A stretch of 64,000 bases of DNA from Microthyrium microscopicum (lineage: Eukaryota): NCBI GenBank assembly GCA_010405405.1, contig MU004238.1, positions 1,747,530 through 1,811,529 on the forward strand, written 5' to 3'. Positions 24,990-34,441 of the stretch are shown in pieces. A program made the position numbers and the translations under genes. Position 1 is the stretch's first letter. Each line of letters starts with the position of its first letter. The notes below the pieces were generated by a model, which saw only the letters and a list, made by a program, of their open reading frames with translations, did not search any database and had not been told where the DNA came from.

Positions 24990-25193
24990 CTATTTCTTTT
25001 TCGGTAGCTCTTTCGGTGGCAGACGGGCTTTGTGAGCAGCGTGTCCTGCATTGTCATTGACAGGTGCCAGCAACATGCCCTTTGAGCAAGTTTTTGTTGT
25101 CACTGCCCGCTGGTCCTTGAGCCCGGTGGTTTTGTTGTAGGAATCATAGATGGGTGTCGAGTTGCTGCCGGATTGCTGATCCTTTGGAGCCAT
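24990..25193 (-). CDS. Small basic orphan protein (67 aa)
   Basis: ORF with strong start context (acaATGg). It is preceded by a TATA at about 25342 and the same leader hairpin as the two neighbouring orphan genes. No domain recognised. Confidence 0.55.
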   Translation of the reverse strand: MAPKDQQSGSNSTPIYDSYNKTTGLKDQRAVTTKTCSKGMLLAPVNDNAGHAAHKARLPPKELPKKK

Positions 25194-25260
25194 TGTAGTT
25201 GTGAATGAGATTGTTTTGCGAATTGATTTCTTGGTGTAGAACGTGATGCTGTTTGACAGA

Positions 25261-25277
25261 TTAGATACCTGATCTAA
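25261..25277 (-). promoter_or_regulatory. 5'-leader stem-loop UUAGAU-CAGGU-AUCUAA (Smaug/Vts1 recognition element-like)
   Basis: 6-bp perfect stem with a CNGGN pentaloop on the coding strand. Confidence 0.65.
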
Positions 25278-25554
25278 GATGAAGTGTTTTTGATGACCGA
25301 AGAATGGAAACCAGCAATTGAAGGACTAAGGCATGTCTTATAGAGTTTTCGAACACTGTGAACAAACGTTGACGTTTGAATTTTGGTAGGGAAGTTGGCG
25401 ACATGCGATCAGTCTATGATCGAACGGCTCCGTTTGATACGCAAAGGTGAAAATGATTACAAACGAATCAATTCACTGTTGCGAAAATTGGAGCATTGGT
25501 ACTCGGCTGGCTGCACAAAAATAGTCGTTGTCCTGAATCGTTGCGGCTACTACT

Positions 25555-27387
25555 CTAGTTCACTTGTTCGTCCTGACCATGAGTTTTGAGGCTTGAACAC
25601 TTCCTTTTCGGCTCTTTCTCGATAGGATAACAACAAGGCATATCCAAAGTCTCGGGCATCTCCAGTGGGATGGGTTCCTTGGCACGGGCCCATTCCTCGA
25701 ATGGATCAAAGAGCTCCCAGGGGCCCGAGATAGTCGCACTCATTCCAGGCCTGTGGTCTTCGCTGACTTTCGCCTGGTCACTGTGGTCTTCGCTGACTTT
25801 CGCCTGGTCACTGTGGTCTTCGCTGACTTTCGCCTGGTCACTGTGGTCTTCGCTGACTTTCGCCTGGTCACTGTGATCTTCGCTGATTGTCTTCTGGTTA
25901 CTTCGGTCTGCTAGGCACTTACGTGGTATTTGAAAATCATTGGAAGGGCCGCCAAACCGTGGAGATTGAACACGTACTTCGACAGACTGAGGAGATGTTT
26001 GAGACGCATACGGGGAAGAATACTGAGAAACATGTTCAGCCGAGTACGGAGCCGCAGATTGAGGAGCATATGGAGAAGCTGATTTTGCAGGAAGTTCGAT
26101 AGACTGAGGAGTTGTTTGAGACGAATACGGCGAAGAATATTCAGAAACATGTTCAGCCGAGTACGGAGCCGCAGACCGAGAATCATATGGAGAAGCTGAT
26201 ATTGCAGGTAGTTCGCTAGACTGAGGAGATGTTCGAGACGCATATTGAGAAGAATATTGAGAAACATGTTCAGCAGAATATGGAGCTACAGACTCAGGAG
26301 TATATGGAGAAGCTGATTGAGCAGGTAGCTCTAAAGACTGAGGTGATGTTCGAGACGCATACTCAGAGGGATATTGAGAAACATATTCAGCAGCATACGG
26401 AATCGTAGGTTGAGAGTCATACTGAGCCGTGTACGGCAGAGCATATGGAGAAGCTGATTGAGTCGTACATGGACGGTCATATGGAGATGTTGTTCGGGCG
26501 GCATACTGATGATACTGATGATCCTGATGTGAAGTAGCATGAACCGCATACTGCTGTTCATATTGAGAAGCTGGTTGAGTCGTGTCTTGATAATCATATT
26601 GAGAAGCTGATTGAGCCGCATACCCAGGAGCTGATTGAGCAGTGTAATGACCACCTTGAGAAGCCGAACGAGCCGCAAACTGAGGAATAAATGGAAAAGC
26701 CGATTGAGCCGTAAACTGAGGACTATATGGAGACCCGAATTGAGAAACTGATTGAGAAACTGATTGAGCCGGATACTGTGAATCAGATTGAGCTGGATAC
26801 TGTGGATCACATTGAGCCAGATACTGCGAAGCTGATTGATGAGCCAGTTGAGCCGTGTACTGTGGATCACATTGAGCTGAATACTCTGGATCAGATTGAG
26901 CCGGATACTGAGAAGCTGATTGATGAGCTGGTTGAGCCGTATACTGAATATCATCTTGAGAAACTGATTGAGGCGGATACTTTGCATCAGATTGAGGCGG
27001 ATACTGAGAAGCTGATTGATGAGCTGGTTGAGCCGTATACTGAATATCATCTTGAGAAACGGATTGAGGCGGATACTTTGCATCAGATTGAACCGGATAC
27101 CGAGAAGCTGATTGATGAGCTGGTTGAGCAGTATACTGAATATTATCTTGAGAAGCTGTTTGAGGCGGATACTTTGCATCAGATTGAGCTGGATACTGAG
27201 GAGCCAGCTGAGTTGTATACTGAACATCATCTTGAGAAGCTGATTGAGGCAGATACTGACGAGCTGATTGAGGCGGACATGGAGGAGCAGGGTTAGGATC
27301 AGACTGAAATCCATACCGTCGAACAAATCGACGAATGGGAGATGGAGTACCAGGGATGAGACATGAGGGAAATTCACGATATGACAT
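25555..27387 (-). CDS. Orphan Ser/Gln/Pro/Ala/Tyr-rich repetitive protein (610 aa)
   Basis: Long uninterrupted ORF with in-frame repeat units of 96, 117 and 30 nt, plus upstream TATA and leader hairpins. No signal peptide or domain recognised. Confidence 0.75.
   Translation of the reverse strand: MSYREFPSCLIPGTPSPIRRFVRRYGFQSDPNPAPPCPPQSARQYLPQSASQDDVQYTTQLAPQYPAQSDAKYPPQTASQDNIQYTAQPAHQSASRYPVQSDAKYPPQSVSQDDIQYTAQPAHQSASQYPPQSDAKYPPQSVSQDDIQYTAQPAHQSASQYPAQSDPEYSAQCDPQYTAQLAHQSASQYLAQCDPQYPAQSDSQYPAQSVSQSVSQFGSPYSPQFTAQSAFPFIPQFAARSASQGGHYTAQSAPGYAAQSASQYDYQDTTQPASQYEQQYAVHATSHQDHQYHQYAARTTSPYDRPCTTQSASPYALPYTAQYDSQPTIPYAAEYVSQYPSEYASRTSPQSLELPAQSASPYTPESVAPYSAEHVSQYSSQYASRTSPQSSELPAISASPYDSRSAAPYSAEHVSEYSSPYSSQTTPQSIELPAKSASPYAPQSAAPYSAEHVSQYSSPYASQTSPQSVEVRVQSPRFGGPSNDFQIPRKCLADRSNQKTISEDHSDQAKVSEDHSDQAKVSEDHSDQAKVSEDHSDQAKVSEDHRPGMSATISGPWELFDPFEEWARAKEPIPLEMPETLDMPCCYPIEKEPKRKCSSLKTHGQDEQVN
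25751..25886. repeat. Perfect 30-nt minisatellite x4 plus partial (encodes SEDHSDQAKV)
   Basis: ctgtggtcttcgctgactttcgcctggtca repeated four times, then a partial variant copy. Confidence 0.97.
25984..26460. repeat. Imperfect 117-nt (39-aa) coding tandem repeat, about 4 copies
   Basis: Anchor agactgagg recurs at 25984, 26101, 26218 and 26335. Confidence 0.9.
26750..27275. repeat. Imperfect 96-nt (32-aa) coding tandem repeat built from 12/24-nt subunits
   Basis: Anchor gagctggttgagc recurs at 26925, 27021 and 27117. Subunits gattgag / gatactg occur throughout. Confidence 0.9.
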
Positions 27388-27402
27388 GATGGTAAAGAGA
27401 AG

Positions 27403-27417
27403 TAGATACCAGATCTA
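27403..27417 (-). promoter_or_regulatory. 5'-leader stem-loop UAGAU-CUGGU-AUCUA (SRE-like)
   Basis: 5-bp stem with CNGGN loop, 15 nt upstream of ATG 27387. Confidence 0.65.
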
Positions 27418-27474
27418 AGCGGAGGTGTTCTGGATGCTGAAAGAGCTTTGATTGGAACTTTGAAGATGCAAAAA

Positions 27475-27491
27475 TTAGATACCAGATCTAA
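27475..27491 (-). promoter_or_regulatory. 5'-leader stem-loop UUAGAU-CUGGU-AUCUAA (SRE-like)
   Basis: 6-bp stem with CNGGN loop, 65 nt downstream of the TATA at 27556. Confidence 0.65.
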
Positions 27492-27729
27492 GTCCATATA
27501 TTGTTGATGAGTGAAGCGTCAAGACCAGCCATTGAAGAACTGAAGCAGGCTATATACAGCCATTGAACAGAAGACTCAAACGGAAACCTTGAAATCTGTT
27601 TGAGAAATTAGTAGATCCCTACCAAAACAGAGTCCAACGGCTCTGTTTGATGCTGTGAGATGAACTAACCTCAAACGAACGTATTGCTGCTAGAAAAGAT
27701 AACCGGCATCCATCTGGCTGAGCACACCG

Positions 27730-28242
27730 TTATTTGGACGACGACTTGTAAGCTTTGTAGGCTGCCTTGCCCAATTTCACAGCCATGCTGCCCTTAGAGT
27801 TGGTCTTCTTAGTGCGTGGGCTATTGTTGCTAGTCGTCGAAGTGCTGTTCCCGAGGAGAGGTGTGACGGTTTCCACTGCGGTGGCCGCAAAGCCAGCGAT
27901 CTCTTTTCCGTGATCTTTGACGAAGCTCATCCCTTGACGGAGACGATGCTTGGAAGCTGTTGCTTCGAGTGGAACATCGTTTGGAAGAGATGCCGTTTGG
28001 GTGACATTAGCTGGTCTTGGTGGTAAGGCTTTTGGGAGAAGTGGCTCAGATTCCGATCTGGTCGTCGTTTGGTGATAGCCCATGCCGTCAAGTTTATCCT
28101 GCTCCCTCAGTTCTTCTGTGCTTGAATACGGTTGTTCTATCAATTGAGTCGTAGCAGGTCCAAACGACACGACCTTTTTGGGTTTGGACTCAGTTTCGCT
28201 GGTAGGCTCGGCTTTGAATGCGGACTTAATGTGGTTGAGCAT
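27730..28242 (-). CDS. Orphan Lys/Ser/Thr-rich protein (170 aa)
   Basis: ORF with good start context (aacATG), TATAAA at 28336 and a leader hairpin. Contains KVVSF, resembling an RVxF PP1-docking motif. No domain recognised. Confidence 0.7.
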   Translation of the reverse strand: MLNHIKSAFKAEPTSETESKPKKVVSFGPATTQLIEQPYSSTEELREQDKLDGMGYHQTTTRSESEPLLPKALPPRPANVTQTASLPNDVPLEATASKHRLRQGMSFVKDHGKEIAGFAATAVETVTPLLGNSTSTTSNNSPRTKKTNSKGSMAVKLGKAAYKAYKSSSK

Positions 28243-28256
28243 GTTGATGGAGTTGA

Positions 28257-28273
28257 TTAGATGCCAGATCTAA
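28257..28273 (-). promoter_or_regulatory. 5'-leader stem-loop UUAGAU-CUGGC-AUCUAA (SRE-like)
   Basis: 6-bp stem with the CUGGC loop of the canonical Smaug element, 14 nt upstream of ATG 28242. Confidence 0.68.
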
Positions 28274-28568
28274 AGGGAAGTATAATAGTATTGTTGGAGT
28301 ATAAAGAATCATAGCTGGCGGATCAAGGGCTTTATACAGCGATCCAGCGTGACAATGGGCTGGACTTGTTGGCTGACAGTAACAAAGCACCCACAGACTG
28401 TGGTAGCTTTGTTGGTATCAAAGCGAACGGATCGCTCAGGAGAGAAAGTCACAGGAGATAGAACTGTCAGCAATCAGCTTTGTTCTCTGTTCTGCATCAT
28501 TTGCACCAGTGACTGGCAATGGTTGATATTGATCATATCTTGGGTTTAGCTTTTACTGTCTGAATCGT

Positions 28569-29686
28569 TCACAATGATTTCAGTAATTCGTTTACAGCTG
28601 TATTGGCGAACCGTTTTCTCTCTGCTTCAGGCATCGCTGAACTGGTGTCTGTGACTTCTGTTAGCATGTCGTCTGGATTTGTTTAATTATCAATGACTGC
28701 ATGGCAGAACACGACATTCGCCGCAGATACTTGCCTTTTATCGCTTGCAGTTGAGACATCATCTTCTCCAGCCCTTCCACCTGTAACTCTTCATCTTCAA
28801 GCTGACCGCCATCTCCGCCATGTGCAATAGAGCTCTTCAGTCCGAGCAATTCGGACCCCATCTCAGCCTCCTCTGCGGCAAACGTAGACGAGAAGTCTAT
28901 TTCTTCATCAGGATCATCGAAGTCGCCAAAGTCCAGATCATCGTCACCATTCCAGTCAGTTGCTTCGATGGCCTCCTGTAGCCGCTCTACGCCAGCTGGC
29001 TCTACGCTCATATCAGCACTAAATTCCCTAAGATCTCTGGCTAAGAGGAGATGAGGTTACTTACCACCAAACTCATTCCGCCCTTTCGCTTCCGAATCAA
29101 TATACTCAAACCCAAACTCCCTACATACATCATCCCATTCATCATATGGCTTATCCAGGTAAGGCGTAATACTCTGGGGCGTGACTACAGCCAAACACGT
29201 TCCATCCCAGCCATACCCCGCCGCCTTCTCGATGACAGTCTGAATAGCTTTGATCGTGGCCTTCACACTTTCCTAAACACACCATTAATATCACCCAAAT
29301 TAACCCCCTTATTGGGTGGAGAAGCTTACAAAGTCCTCCTGCGTGACTGGGCGCCGAAAGCAGTAAATCCAAGCCCCTAGCGAAGTAATGACCTCTCGCG
29401 CTTCAGTCTTCGAAAATTCGGTAGTCCATTCATCCAGAGAAGATATTTCGTCGATCCATATTGGTAGGTCGGCGGTGTAGTAGTTTGTTTTGATGGCCCA
29501 GATGTGGGAGAGACCGGCGGTGGAATTGTCGACTGGAGCGGGCGATGAGCCGCATAGACCTGTAATGTCGTTAGATCATTCGATGGCTTTGTGAAAGGGG
29601 GTTTGGGACGGACTGGTGAGGAGTTCTAAGACACCTGTGTCGGGTGCTCCGAGGAGTAATATTCGTCGTGGTCGTTTTATGTCCAT
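28569..29686 (-). CDS. IRC6: Alpha/gamma-adaptin-binding protein p34 (AAGAB/Irc6 family), multi-exon
   Basis: Manual splice: MDIKRPRRILLLGAP...WAIKTNYYTADLPIWIDEI...WDDVCREFGFEYID...GRNEFG...GVERLQEAIEATDW...LEKMMSQLQAIK...MPEAERKRFANTAVNELLKSL*. Confidence 0.87.
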
Positions 29687-30094
29687 GTTTGTGTAGGGGA
29701 ATGGTTTGAGGGATGGAAGTTAAGAGACGGATCTTACGATTTATTGGTGGCCAAACCACACGATTAAAAGCAACAACCACTTAGCTTTCGAGATCAGAGA
29801 TAGTATTGCTTTTGCATCAAGAAGATATCTTGATTCTAAAAATATTTGATATGTGCCATTAATCAATATTCATTCATTGTAAGTCAAAGCCTGTAGCGAT
29901 ATCTTCTAGGCCGGCCATTTTCATCATCAGTTTGAGATCTTCTACATCCCACCTGGAAATCGGCATGACCTTTCAAGTTTGTCATCCAGAGGAAGCGAAT
30001 TCAACCATTCCGAACATATCGTCGGAGCATCGCTCCACTGAGTTCTTGAGACCCCAAAATCAAAGTAGCAATTTCACCCTCCATCCATCAATGC

Positions 30095-30641
30095 TCAAGG
30101 ACCGCCCCGCCCTCCACCACCACCACGACCCATCGATTGTCCTCTCGCTCTGCTAACCGTCGCCCGACCTCTAGCCAAGCCAACACCACGTCCCTTGCGA
30201 TCCTTCTGTCTGAACATCGGCGCATTCCTAACAACCAGTAAGTATGTATGTCGTAGCAACCGTAATGGCTAAAGATAAGTGGTCGTACCGTAACATATCA
30301 GGCACAATGAAAAACCGCACATGCGATCCACGAATATACACCTGATCCAAATGCGACACGCGACCGTCTCGTGCAGTCACGGTAATATCTTTGAGTTGTA
30401 CGTTCATGTTGTCTTCGGCTACACCAGCAATCAGTAAACATGTTTTTCGAGGCGGTATAGTTTGCGCGCACCTTCTAGGAGCTTGCCGCGGTAGACTTGG
30501 CCGGAGGAGAGTTCGAGTGTAACGACATGGCCCTGGGAATGCGCATTAGTACAAGCTCTCGGTGAGTGAGTGGGGAGGGGGAGGAGTGCGTACTGTAGCT
30601 TCGTTGAGTAGTTTGATGGGGATACCGATCGTGCTGGTCAT
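30095..30641 (-). CDS. SMD3: Small nuclear ribonucleoprotein Sm D3, 4 exons
   Basis: Manual splice: [83 protein letters not shown]...RG-rich tail. Missed by the ORF track. Confidence 0.96.
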
Positions 30642-30870
30642 CTTCGCGATAGTATGAGAATATGGGAGAGCGAAGAGGAGGTGGTATTAGTTTGGAATTG
30701 GCGAGAGTTTTTGGGTGTTGAAATTCTGTGGAAGGCTGCAGCTCGAAAATGAGAGCTTGTGACTTTAGGGTTGAGAAGGAGTGAACCCTAACGCGGCTGT
30801 CTCTTCTCAACGCGATTGATTGATTCAAGAGCAACGTCATTGAAGAAGAGCAATATTTAAGATCTTTGAA

Positions 30871-31667
30871 ATGACTTGGTTGAATTTCTCTGGTACGGTG
30901 AATGCGTTTCGGCTACTTCGAGATCCCTCCTTGTGTCTGCCTCATCACACAGTCTCGACCTTCAACTCTCTGCCCATTCCATTGACCAAGGCACTACAGA
31001 AACAGCATGACAAGAGCGAACTGGATATTCGGGCCGTTGTGCTAGATAAAGACAACTGTTTTGCTGTTCCACACAGCAATGAGGTCTACGAAGGATATAA
31101 GGTAGATCTCTACTCGTTCACAAGCTCACACAGAAAAACTGACAGCAATGTAGGTCAAGTTTAGGCAATTACGGGAAGCATATCCTGGATCAAAGCTACT
31201 AATTGTCTCCAATACGGCGGGTACATCATCAGATAAGAACCACGCTGAGGCGGCCTTACTGGAGAAGAATACTGGAGTAGCTGTGCTGCGTCATGACACC
31301 AAGGTATATGATGAGACGAGCCACTGCTGGAATATTTACTCATTGCTACTAGAAACCTGGCTGCCATGAAGAAGTAATGCGCTATCTGCGAAAATCTGAT
31401 GCTGGAGTGACTTCACCGTCTCAAGTGGCCATTGTTGGTGATCGACTACTCACTGACATGATGCTCGCGAACACGATGGGCTCCTATGGATTTTGGATTC
31501 GCGATGGCGTGAAAGAAGCAGGCATACGGCCGAGTTTCGTGAGTTCAATATTCCATGCCTGTTCTAAGCCTAATCGTTCACAGATTGCCCGCATGGAAGG
31601 TCGGTTGGCGACGTTCCTCTTTCGGCGTCGCTTCATTCCACAAAATCCGACCAGTCCATTTGAATGA
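30871..31667 (+). CDS. GEP4: Mitochondrial phosphatidylglycerophosphatase (HAD IIIA), 4 exons
   Basis: PSLCLPH, HAD motif VVLDKDNCF, LLIVSNTAG, KKPGC, VAIVGDRLLTDMMLAN. Confidence 0.92.
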
Positions 31668-31694
31668 GAATTCTTCAACACTGCTTGCATTATA

Positions 31695-34441
31695 CTACTT
31701 AACCCTAATGCGTTCAGTTATATATGCCGGAACCCTCAACTGCATCTGCCGTCTGATTTCTCTTAGCGAGCGCTTGACAGCCTTCCCATCCGGCCCAATT
31801 TTCTTGTCTTCAATCTCATCCATCTTCAATCCAATGGGCAGCTCCTGTAAGCCCTTGGTAATGTGCTTCTTATTAGTCTTGGAGCTCGTTGCGAGACGGT
31901 TGCCAAAACGAAGGAATTCGCCGAGCATACCACACATGAAATTGGCCTCGTGGGTTCCTTCAAGCGCTGCAGAGATCTCGGCACGTAATTGTGCAAGTAA
32001 GTCGTCAACGGCATCAATTGGATTGGTCGCAGATGTGGTGAGCCACCCAGTGATGCCGATAGCGTCAACAGTGCAGCTAAGTAGCCGGGCGACTACGGTA
32101 ATAGAGTGGTCAAATGGGCCTTTTTCTTCATCCGCTGAGGTTGAGTCCACATAACGCGACGTCCAGCCACCTTCTGCGAGCTCTATCCGCAATATATGCA
32201 CGAGAAAGATCAGCTCGTGCTGGGTGAGAGCGCTCCGAAGAGCATTGGTGATTGCCGGTCCACCATGTCCATTGAGCGCAGTTAGTGCCCGACTCAGAGC
32301 TTCGCCGCGCATCGGATGATGTTCCTCAAGAGCGTCCAGAGCCATGTCAACATCATCCAATGCATCTTCGACCTGTTGGTCTAGGTCGCTCTCGTCATCA
32401 CCATTTGGTAGGTGCTCATCACCATTTGTGAGGAGGGCCTTGGGAGCAGGAAGATTGGAATTATCGTAGCTCTGAACAATGTGTTTTATACACTGGGCCA
32501 GGTCGTCAATGGGAAGATATGGGTGGTGAGTTATCATGCTGCAGAGTACTCCTAGACTGGGATCGAAGCGGGCGACGGCGGTGATGACGTCCGATGGTTG
32601 GAGGGAGAATATTGGCTCGTCTTGTGGGTATAATCGTAATGCTTGTTCAATCATAGTGTTTGAGAGATGACCTCTGCTGGCAAGCCAGAGAAAAATGTTA
32701 GGAGGGAAGAAGCGGATTGTAAGAGGCGGTGAACCTCCGATTCGAGGCGTTTGCTCGCTTTTCTTGTCAGGTTCGCCGAGTTCAAATATCACTCTCAATA
32801 TGAAAAGGGCTCGCAATTTTGTCCCGCTGAATTCTTCTGCGCCAACTGGCTTGTCAAATGACCATTGCAGCAATGATGCATCAGAATCCACTTGATTCAG
32901 CCAGGAGAATCCCGGATCGGTAGCGAGTTCCCTTTCGAAAGCTTCTGTATCTCCTTTATTGGAGACTTCGATGAGATGCTCACGTTTTGCAGTCCAGCCA
33001 TGACTTTCTTGGTCAGTGAACGGTTGGCCAAGAGATTCTGTGATGTCTGTAGGTATGGTAATGTTCGCTTTAACAGCTCCGTTGGGAACGCCGCGGTTAA
33101 GCGAGTTTAAAAGTTTCGAACTTTTCATTTTGCGTCTCTTGTGGGACGCTCGCGCATTGAATTGTATACCAAGGAGCTCGTTTTCATGCAGCAATATTGC
33201 CATTCCAAGCTTAGGCGAAAAGTGCAAAAGTTGGGTGCAGCTGTGTAGAACAGGAGCGTCAACTCGTTTTCGCTTCTTCCCTAAAGTGAGAAAGTTGGAA
33301 GGGAGAAGATGTCGGTCTTGTACCGAGCTGTATTTCGAGTCATATATCGTAAATGCGGAGTCTGATCCAACGAGATAAAGAGATCCATCTAGAGCGAGAT
33401 GGCCGTCTGAGTCTTGAGTTTCAATTGTCGATATGAGCTCTGGCACGCCTTTTCCAAAGCTGTAGGTGTAGACCTTGGTGTTTAACTTGACATGTAACAG
33501 GCGGCAAATAACGTTCCAAGAACAGGATACAAGCTCTTTTGGGTCACCATGACTAGGAATTGGAGTTGTAAGGGTGATAAGATGCTGTAAAGGGTGCTCA
33601 AAATTATTCGCTACACGGGTGTTTGGCCTTATCACTGACAGTGATATTTGCAGGTTCGTCCGGTCAACATCGTGCCCAACAGAACAGATGATAGTAGCTC
33701 TTGAAAGATTTGCTTCGCTGCCACCAACTATGCCCACAAGTTGACCTGCAAGATCTTCACGATTTTCGAAGAATGTGTCTTTCACAGTTTTTGCGTCGAT
33801 ACAGATAGCGTTGTCAAATTGCTCGGCCCCATTGGAAGGCTCGAGCGAGGCAGTCCATATTAACTGGCTCAAATCGCTAGAGAAGAGTTGAGCTGTACCG
33901 TTTCTTTGGATGAGCAGTATCTCAAAAGAGCTGTGTGTTTTGGCGGGGAGTGAGGTATGAACAGCCTCGAGCGATAAAACAGAGCTCTGTAATGAGATCT
34001 CAGTTTGGAATTTGGTTGCTGCAGTGTCGGGCCCATTTTTGGCGTCCTCGAAGCATAATATTATACTTTCATCGGTGGAGGTGTCTTGAGCAACGACGTA
34101 TGATCTTTGAAGAGTGGCTTTGGATTTTTCAGGATTCGAAATTACTGAGCACGGCTTGGAGAGAAATCGGATCTGCGGGGAGACGGCATGAGAGTATATG
34201 AGGCTGGGAGGTTGGATCTTTTCTGGTGTGTGAGTATGTTTCAAAGAAGTCTTGAGAGTTAAGAATAACTAACATGATAGGTATTCAAGCTATCACCGTC
34301 AACTGCCACAGATACATGAGAGCGCTTGCGTTTTCTCGACTGGGTGAAGGAAGTAACGGGCGCGGCCTGTATGCGACCATTGTCCGAGTCGAATGGTTTA
34401 GGAAGAGTGAGAAGTGAGTAGACTGATTCGATGGTGCTCAT
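31695..34441 (-). CDS. UTP8: U3 snoRNP / SSU processome Utp8-like protein, 2 exons
   Basis: N-terminus MSTIESVYSLLTLPKP...RKRKRSHVSVAVDGDSLNTY and C-terminal Y.TERI resemble Pezizomycotina Utp8 proteins (from recall). 849-codon main exon. Confidence 0.7.

Follow-up and report, generated by a model that had tools for sequence, protein, structure and literature searches.

A conserved 17-nt element within a duplicated promoter-leader module of three orphan genes in Microthyrium microscopicum, possibly an operator of the RNA leader

In a 64,000-nt stretch of Microthyrium microscopicum DNA (GenBank assembly GCA_010405405.1, contig MU004238.1, positions 1,747,530 to 1,811,529; hereafter the window, numbered from its first letter), four copies of a 17-nt inverted repeat with a CNGGN centre, designated c1 to c4, stand on the minus strand ahead of three tandem open reading frames (ORFs) of 67, 610 and 170 amino acids (aa). 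This element is the cis-element of a duplicated promoter-leader module that belongs to a small orphan-gene family, and as such a family-specific cis-regulatory element. Our best explanation is a conserved operator close to the transcription start site, which we tentatively place in the RNA leader; this reading commands somewhat less than even confidence, and we hold it to be likelier than action as a DNA palindrome. The original prediction for this locus had gone further, reading the copies as Smaug/Vts1-type stem-loops in the 5′ leaders of three unrelated genes that would form a post-transcriptional regulon.

The pattern TAGATCNGGNATCTA matched four times in the window, on the minus strand only (25262-25276, 27403-27417, 27476-27490 and 28258-28272), against an expectation of 0.01 from dinucleotide shuffles, none of which (0 of 100) reached four matches. 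The same four copies were returned when all five loop letters were left free (TAGATNNNNNATCTA), when up to three mismatches to the 17-mer were allowed (0.29 expected), by a covariance model that treated the stem as structure and was run with filters off (32.6-34.2 bits, with the next match at 10.8 bits), and by an nhmmer profile of the four flanked copies (alignment A3), which matched nothing else; a second nhmmer profile, of the three upstream modules (alignment A1), likewise matched those modules alone. The pattern search and the shuffles confirm the four minus-strand hairpin-type copies ahead of the three ORFs that had originally been described, and the free-loop, mismatch, covariance-model and nhmmer searches agree with the earlier remark that the window holds no further copy of TTAGAT-CNGGN-ATCTAA. 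Among the four copies, the stem varies once, by an outermost A>C in c2 (27402-27418) that breaks the outer pair, and c2 and c3 are identical in 16 of 17 letters. The restriction of loop variation to positions 2 and 5 also holds, with loops CAGGT, CTGGT, CTGGT and CTGGC in which C, G and G are invariant and both changes sit at the free positions N2 and N5 of CNGGN. In the four-way alignment A3, 14 of 17 element columns are invariant versus 9 of 62 in the aligned flanks, so that the block is evidently under constraint. The four-copy element is real, better kept than its flanks and on the coding strand. It precedes each of the three family ORFs and does not recur after the last, and two of its copies, placed by the original prediction 14-15 nt ahead of the AUG, stand exactly 14 nt before it (c4, 28257 to 28242; c2, 27402 to 27387), an unusual place for an upstream-activator site.

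Stop codons are present in the element in two frames (TAG and TAA; 27488-27490, 25261-25263, 28270-28272 and 27415-27417, minus strand). Two upstream ORFs, opened by ATG 27532 and ATG 25404, terminate exactly within a copy, and in c2 and c4 the TAG shares the frame of the main ATG, which lies nine codons further on.

Homology extends well beyond the element. blastn aligned the upstream module of the 610-aa gene (module B) with that of the 67-aa gene (module A) over 209 columns at 64% identity (E = 3.5e-17; 27679-27474 versus 25467-25260), and an ungapped block of 96 nt, running from the TATA-like box to the element, is common to the two at 71% identity (family D6). At 71% identity, a 42-nt stretch running from c2 to the 610 ATG resembles its counterpart of 42 nt from c4 to the 170 ATG (family D8), the c2 and c1 regions align over 51 nt at 74.5%, and the module of the 170-aa gene has the common TATA-like box at equal distance together with about 27-42 nt around the element. 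The 30 nt upstream of the element are moderately conserved and the downstream flank is not. Differences within the 96 nt comprise 15 transitions and 13 transversions, and repeat-induced point mutation was rejected as the source of module divergence because no transition excess is seen. These alignments indicate that one promoter-leader module was duplicated with its gene, and once more inside the 610 leader, the coding parts having diverged beyond recognition. Since the upstream regions are homologous, the three genes are "unrelated" at the protein level only, where pairwise comparison of the three ORFs gave nothing significant (best E 8.6e-4 over 44 aa, without composition correction); and since the copies descend by module duplication, their presence before three genes counts as one event, not three. 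To describe three unrelated genes as separately carrying one hairpin was thus an overstatement, and the locus offers a more general caution: a motif that stands unchanged ahead of several "unrelated" genes may have been inherited from a single copy and not recruited independently.

Under the mechanism that we propose, the four 17-mers would be copies of one cis-acting control element within a module spread by local tandem duplication. The ancestral layout was probably a TATA-like box, about 63 nt, the element, 14 nt and the ATG, an arrangement still seen in the 170-aa gene; the 610 leader would have arisen from it by a duplication of about 73 nt that split it into a TATA-linked c3 and an ATG-linked c2, and the leader of the 67-aa gene by lengthening. 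Lying in the transcribed 5′ leader, near the mRNA start or the AUG, the element would be a site for a sequence-specific protein and could give the three genes common control of translation or stability, probably repressive or stage-timed. In this scheme we infer the position of the mRNA 5′ end, the action at the RNA level, the binding of a protein and the direction of control. Coordinates are collected in Table 1.

Table 1. Copies of the element, TATA-like boxes, modules, intron and ORFs in the window
Feature	Positions	Strand	Description
c4	28257..28273	minus	TTAGAT-CTGGC-ATCTAA; 63 nt past TATA-like box, 14 nt ahead of 170-aa ORF ATG; in RNA contig
c3	27475..27491	minus	TTAGAT-CTGGT-ATCTAA; distal copy of 610 leader; 65 nt past TATA-like box, 87 nt to ATG; in RNA contig
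c2	27402..27418	minus	TTAGAT-CTGGT-ATCTAC; proximal copy of 610 leader; 14 nt to ATG; start 73 nt past c3; in RNA contig
c1	25261..25277	minus	TTAGAT-CAGGT-ATCTAA; 65 nt past TATA-like box, 67 nt to 67-aa ORF ATG
TATA-like box TATAAA	28331..28336	minus	upstream of c4; inside RNA contig
TATA-like box TATATA	27551..27556	minus	upstream of c3; inside RNA contig
TATA-like box TATAAG	25337..25342	minus	upstream of c1
Module B (610 gene)	27474..27679	minus	homologous to module A, from intron 5′ splice site through c3 end
Module A (67 gene)	25260..25467	minus	homologous to module B
Spliced intron, 74 nt	27596..27669	minus	GTTAGT...TACTAAT...CAG; contig joint, 255 letters on shorter side; contains ATCAAACAGAGCCGTT
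170-aa ORF	27730..28242	minus	orphan, predicted disordered; stop codon 27730-27732
610-aa ORF	25555..27387	minus	Q/S/P/Y-rich; 30-, 96- and 117-nt tandem repeats
67-aa ORF	24990..25193	minus	hydrophilic

A second conserved block, ATCAAAC(A/G)GAGCCGTT, was found in the 610 and 67 modules (27625-27651 and 25423-25438, minus strand). In the 610 module it belongs to an 8-bp inverted repeat, AAACAGAG...CTCTGTTT, inside the intron, and at the corresponding place the 170 module holds another 8-bp inverted repeat, AACAAAGC...GCTTTGTT (28381-28413, minus strand). The second block and the inverted repeats may be upstream factor sites of a Myb- or HMG-like type.

Counted from box starts at 28336, 27556 and 25342, the TATA-like box lies 63 nt (c4), 65 nt (c3) and 65 nt (c1) from the element, and the element lies 14 nt (170-aa gene), 87 and 14 nt (610-aa gene) and 67 nt (67-aa gene) from the ATG. 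No ATG occurs between the element and the main ATG in any of the three genes, and all three main ATGs have A at -3. The 610 leader has three upstream ATGs between the 74-nt intron and c3; ATG 27497, in good context (TATATGG) and 6 nt before c3, opens a 388-codon frame that overlaps the 610-aa ORF. Given this overlapping frame, a productive 610 mRNA should start at or after c3, and an RNA starting upstream of ATG 27497 should translate the 610-aa ORF poorly. The spacing of 63-65 nt from the TATA-like box falls inside the start-site scanning window of 40-120 bp given for Saccharomyces cerevisiae in the available part of PMC8589449, which is a yeast figure and not one for filamentous fungi. Taking together the lack of an ATG from element to start codon, the good ATG before c3 and the TATA spacing, we think that short mRNAs start at or just before the TATA-linked copies, and that the longer spliced RNA described below would be read-through or an upstream-initiated isoform.

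Contigs of two sequencing runs (X1 and X2) were aligned to 27300-31800, a stretch that takes in c2, c3 and c4. For X1, 10 of the 12 aligned records were at least 99% alike, and its contigs skip 11 segments of 45-86 nt, with CT..AC or CT..GC ends at minus-strand genes and GT..AG ends at the plus-strand phosphatase gene. Because these skipped segments have the character of spliced introns, we take X1 to be RNA-derived and from the same organism; the X2 contigs, from a second organism, matched within the LSM-gene region 30201-30633 only. One X1 contig of 3066 nt lacks five minus-strand introns of the GT-AG or GC-AG kind and follows the window through c2, c3 and c4 colinearly, with 0 other letters. 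It spans the exons of the upstream adaptin-binding-protein gene, with introns out at 29560-29613, 29273-29329, 29002-29064 and 28649-28734, runs unbroken from 28648 to 27670, a span with the TATA-like box (28336), c4 and the entire 170-aa ORF, and resumes from 27595 to 27300 through the TATA-like box at 27556, c3, c2 and the 610 ATG, continuing for about 1 kb more. The 74-nt intron thereby removed lies between the 170-aa ORF stop (60 nt after it) and the TATA-like box of the 610 module, and is either an intron in the 3′ untranslated region (UTR) of the 170 gene or part of the 5′ UTR in a longer transcript of the 610 gene. Ahead of the 67-aa ORF, the donor of the homologous sequence (about 25357-25459) is a poorer one, GTAATC.

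Some RNA with the 610 leader begins upstream of the 74-nt intron. That the copies are transcribed is borne out for c2, c3 and c4, which lie within a spliced minus-strand RNA contig, whereas the contig stretch compared (27300-31800) ends short of c1 and of most of the 610-aa ORF. The contigs merge overlapping transcripts of neighbouring same-strand genes and RNA ends are not visible in them, so they establish neither one long transcript nor any start site. Because they run through the TATA-like boxes and show "intergenic" splicing, the simple order of TATA box, start site, hairpin and ATG, as first put forward, is incomplete: the boxes do stand at a near-constant distance before the copies, but the RNA contigs traverse them and splice an "intergenic" intron.

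Several observations weigh against an operator that acts in RNA. A 6-5-6 inverted repeat at a fixed distance from the TATA box fits a dimeric DNA-binding protein equally well, and the C-GG constraint, with two loop changes only, is not statistically secure by our own estimate. In 37-nt pieces the proposed hairpin has energies of -1.4 to -2.5 kcal/mol (z -1.04 to +0.46), and for c1 the lowest-energy fold is a different pairing. Folding in 57-187-nt contexts (20-85 nt of flank per copy), which is a prediction only, gave stem probabilities of 0.18-0.38 for c1, about 0.00 for c2, 0.00-0.02 for c3 and 0.06-0.69 for c4; two unrelated CNGGN hairpins elsewhere in the window had stem probabilities of 0.7-1.0 in context. 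Covariation is absent as well (five of the six pairs never vary and the sixth is broken once), a lack that argues neither way between an RNA hairpin and a DNA palindrome. The 3066-nt contig, which cannot show RNA ends, also covers the TATA-like boxes and the upstream gene. A hairpin structure is not supported by calculation, although predictions for short AU-rich stems are weak evidence. The CNGGN stem-loop of the original prediction therefore has support in its loop, which fits in four of four copies, but little in its stem, which is weak, no better than in shuffles and free of compensatory change, with c2 and c3 predicted unfolded in context.

The narrower proposal that the elements are 5′-UTR Smaug recognition elements (SREs) of the Smaug/Vts1 type, through which the Vts1 SAM domain would silence the cluster via CCR4-NOT and might run a genome-wide regulon, is a special case of the RNA-leader reading, takes up well under half of the confidence we place in it, and seems to us unlikely. 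It draws on loops that all fit CNGGN and vary at N2 and N5 only, on three of four loops being CUGG and all being 5 nt long, which are the best-performing variants in the text available of PMC4053848, and on the position of the elements on the sense strand of RNA (c2, c3 and c4 in the spliced contig). A Vts1 with a SAM domain, moreover, exists and matters for development in another filamentous ascomycete, Magnaporthe oryzae, where it is a MAP-kinase target needed for infection-related development (bioRxiv 10.1101/2023.08.19.553964, in a portion of text that leaves RNA binding aside). As all copies descend from one, however, the loop match counts as a single coincidence, about 1 in 64 by our own estimate, a figure that takes no account of how many other known loop motifs might have been hit instead. 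The published rule asks for a loop of CNGG plus 0-3 further bases with G preferred 5′ of the loop, where the element has U (PMC4053848, in part), and the stem is weak or predicted absent. Generic CNGGN hairpins with five Watson-Crick pairs number 6 in the window versus 1.6 expected, but four of these six are the copies themselves and the other two are at chance level. Scored for SREs along published lines (local folding at 25 °C with window 170 and span 120; PMC4053848, methods as excerpted), the 170 mRNA reached 1.22, the 610 mRNA 0.07 and the 67 mRNA 0.27; ten control ORFs from the window covered 0.00-1.72, so that no enrichment is common to the three mRNAs. In the parts of PMC4053848 at hand, Drosophila SREs are mostly found within ORFs, the classic ones being those of the nanos 3′ UTR, and a 5′-leader SRE operator is not met. 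The Vts1 regulon claim thus comes down to a single low-information loop match. A 5′-leader RNA operator with a CNGGN pentaloop at the mRNA start, 14 nt before the AUG, read by Vts1 or another RNA-binding protein, would be undescribed before, and we regard it as improbable; if true, a young cluster of orphan genes for disordered proteins would be kept from translation until a developmental signal arrived, and elsewhere in the genome this CNGGN operator might mark a wider regulon.

Action at the DNA level is possible, if rather doubtful. Here the three genes would be transcribed under common control of the 17-bp inverted repeat, acting either as the operator of a dimeric transcription factor or as an initiator-region element specific to the family; the repeat consists of 6-bp half-sites separated by a 5-bp spacer, with centres 11 bp apart, and would be placed about 63-65 bp past the TATA-like box, where RNA polymerase II starts. 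Palindromic sites that recur across the promoters of a fungal gene cluster are a familiar pattern (AflR TCGN5CGA, QA-1F), and half-sites of the form TTAGAT-N5-ATCTAA with a fixed spacer precede three of three ORFs, the 6-5-6 palindrome lying on one helix face. The spacing from the TATA box is kept in all three genes while the ATG distance varies, c3 and c2 are 73 bp apart, about seven helical turns by our arithmetic, and conservation beyond the element lies on its upstream side (30 nt) and not downstream. The invariance of the stems without compensatory change and the weakness of the RNA hairpin, in two copies predicted not to form, point the same way. Such a site would nevertheless be oddly placed for an activator, with two copies 14-31 nt before the ATG and three inside RNA contigs, and the loop is constrained asymmetrically, C1 and G4 being fixed and their symmetry partners variable. 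CGG or TCG half-sites are missing, we know of no fungal factor motif that fits the element, and the window has no transcription-factor gene beside the cluster, its sole zinc-finger-like ORF being weak and ~23 kb off. A third explanation, to which we give very little weight, supposes a long spliced read-through RNA from the adaptin-binding-protein gene in which the element would be an internal re-initiation, processing or 3′-end signal. One RNA contig does join the upstream gene, the 170-aa ORF, the "intergenic" intron and the start of the 610-aa ORF, and re-initiation on natural and engineered fungal bicistrons is documented (PMC10352335, as far as excerpted); but contigs merge overlapping transcripts of adjacent same-strand genes, the spacers measure 329-361 nt and contain upstream ATGs (three between the intron and c3), and the element, present before the first ORF and missing after the last, fits a 5′ module and not a 3′-end signal. 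Nor was cleavage or splicing seen at the copies, since the contig is colinear across c2, c3 and c4. We consider it just as improbable that the block has no function and was left behind by duplication or by short tracts of gene conversion. The copies are confined to 3 kb, and by our own estimate a 16-of-17 window is not very improbable for one module pair at 64% identity; against this, the block is kept in four copies amid far more diverged flanks, and the balance of transitions and transversions noted above gives no bias that would hint at recent repeat-induced mutation.

Outside the window, a metagenome scan with TTAGATCNGGNATCTAA matched at least 119 loci, each by a single match; among the matches listed, all 16 loop variants occurred (counts from 15 down to 1), a TATA-like box stood at -85 to -45 in 3 of 117 loci, and there was no homology beyond about 18-28 nt, and we read these matches as background, without relatives among those listed. 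In Rfam 15, six matches had E values no higher than 10; all fell far short of the gathering score (22 bits for the best, where 60 are required) and none lay on the minus-strand elements. The motif strings of the element were not found in the searchable literature. Other readings of the element were rejected. Splice signals (a 5′ splice-like GGTATC, a branch-like CTAAT and an acceptor-like YTTAG within the element) do not agree with a contig that is colinear across c2, c3 and c4; a poly(A) signal of the upstream gene, with TATATA as efficiency element, does not agree with an element that precedes all three ORFs and is missing after the last, nor with the continuous contig; and a Pol III terminator would have its T5 run after c3 alone. 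Adenosine-to-inosine editing of an in-frame TAG was set aside on the lack of an upstream in-frame ATG and of other letters in the contigs, and N-terminal extension from non-AUG codons was judged not persuasive. A primer-binding site or long terminal repeat, a GATA site and a telomere-type Myb site were dropped for what we take to be sequence misfits in some copies.

The orphan status of the 67-, 610- and 170-aa ORFs, with no visible protein similarity among them, held in library as well as pairwise searches. The 170-aa protein found itself as sole match among 5.8 billion clustered proteins and 1.84 billion representatives, and the 67-aa and 610-aa ORFs found no match, not even themselves, in the protein collection within the length ranges searched. 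The 170-aa ORF is thus in the public protein collection letter for letter and its two neighbours are not, and these two may be unannotated or modelled differently in public records. No Pfam family was assigned to any of the three, and for the 170-aa protein the Atlas model is of low confidence (pLDDT 0.52) and the Atlas search gave no usable structural look-alike. A codon-usage score, for which 11 solid ORFs of the window supplied the training set (range 0.16-0.32), was 0.16 in frame for the 170-aa ORF (-0.28 and -0.32 out of frame), 0.11 for the 67-aa ORF (-0.32 and -0.19) and 0.19 for the non-repeat C-terminus of the 610-aa ORF (-0.23 and -0.29); all three are coding-like by this score and close to the training range. 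The tandem repeats of the 610-aa ORF (25721-25909, 25971-26426 and 26514-27324) are of three kinds: a 30-nt unit (SEDHSDQAKV) in five near-perfect copies, a 117-nt unit in three copies, and a run of units of the 96-nt type. The coding frame of this repeat part is less certain, for it can also be read through without a stop in a second frame (388 aa, beginning at ATG 27497) and, on the opposite strand, over 189 aa (26727-27296), where the codon score is very high at 0.52.

The gene content of the window is eukaryotic and fungal, with kinesin, RRP5, NAPRTase, DUF7785 and mitochondrial PGP phosphatase genes and short GT-AG introns, and we take its source to be a filamentous ascomycete. The adaptin-binding-protein p34 (Irc6-like) gene upstream of the cluster has at least four spliced introns, among them a GC-AG intron of 86 nt (28649-28734, minus strand; GCAAGT...CAG), and its stop at 28571. 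An LSM-domain gene at about 29716-30772 (minus strand) contains three short introns (30228-30288, 30419-30471 and 30533-30593).

Should the element prove to be an RNA operator, it would represent a rare natural instance, in a filamentous fungus, of post-transcriptional control exerted through the leader, and would define a target class there for Vts1-type proteins; as a DNA site it would be an ordinary promoter motif specific to this family. In both cases the locus shows, cleanly and on a small scale, how new orphan genes retain a common control module as their coding parts diverge.

Several known systems invite comparison. The IGG1/IGG6 bicistron of Glarea lozoyensis (PMC10352335, from the text available) resembles the present locus in that adjacent same-strand ORFs are joined here in one RNA contig; it differs in that the ORFs here are separated by spacers of several hundred nt, which contain upstream ATGs and TATA-like boxes of their own, and in that the joining is seen at the level of contigs. 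With the Smaug SREs (in the nanos 3′ UTR and the Hsp83 ORF, and in yeast Vts1 targets) the element has in common a sense-strand CNGGN pentaloop motif with a putative stem, more than one copy per RNA (c2 and c3), and variation at the positions that the consensus leaves free. It differs in lying in the 5′ leader and not in an ORF or 3′ UTR, in its AU-rich weak stem with U before the loop, in being predicted unfolded in two of four contexts, and in an SRE score without enrichment. The palindromes of fungal gene clusters (AflR, QA-1F) are likewise inverted repeats, with a 5-bp spacer, ahead of each cluster gene; the element, in contrast, is without CGG or TCG half-sites, is preceded by the TATA-like box, stands within RNA at 14-104 nt from the ATG, and has no regulator gene beside its cluster in the window. 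The nearest functional analogy may be the iron-responsive element of ferritin, a cap-proximal protein-binding hairpin of the mRNA. The loop and stem rules of the two differ, and here the position near the 5′ end is deduced from the TATA distance and the upstream ATGs; what they would have in common is that a short motif of hairpin type, conserved and with a loop core that does not vary, stands early in the leader, where a bound site could block ribosome loading.

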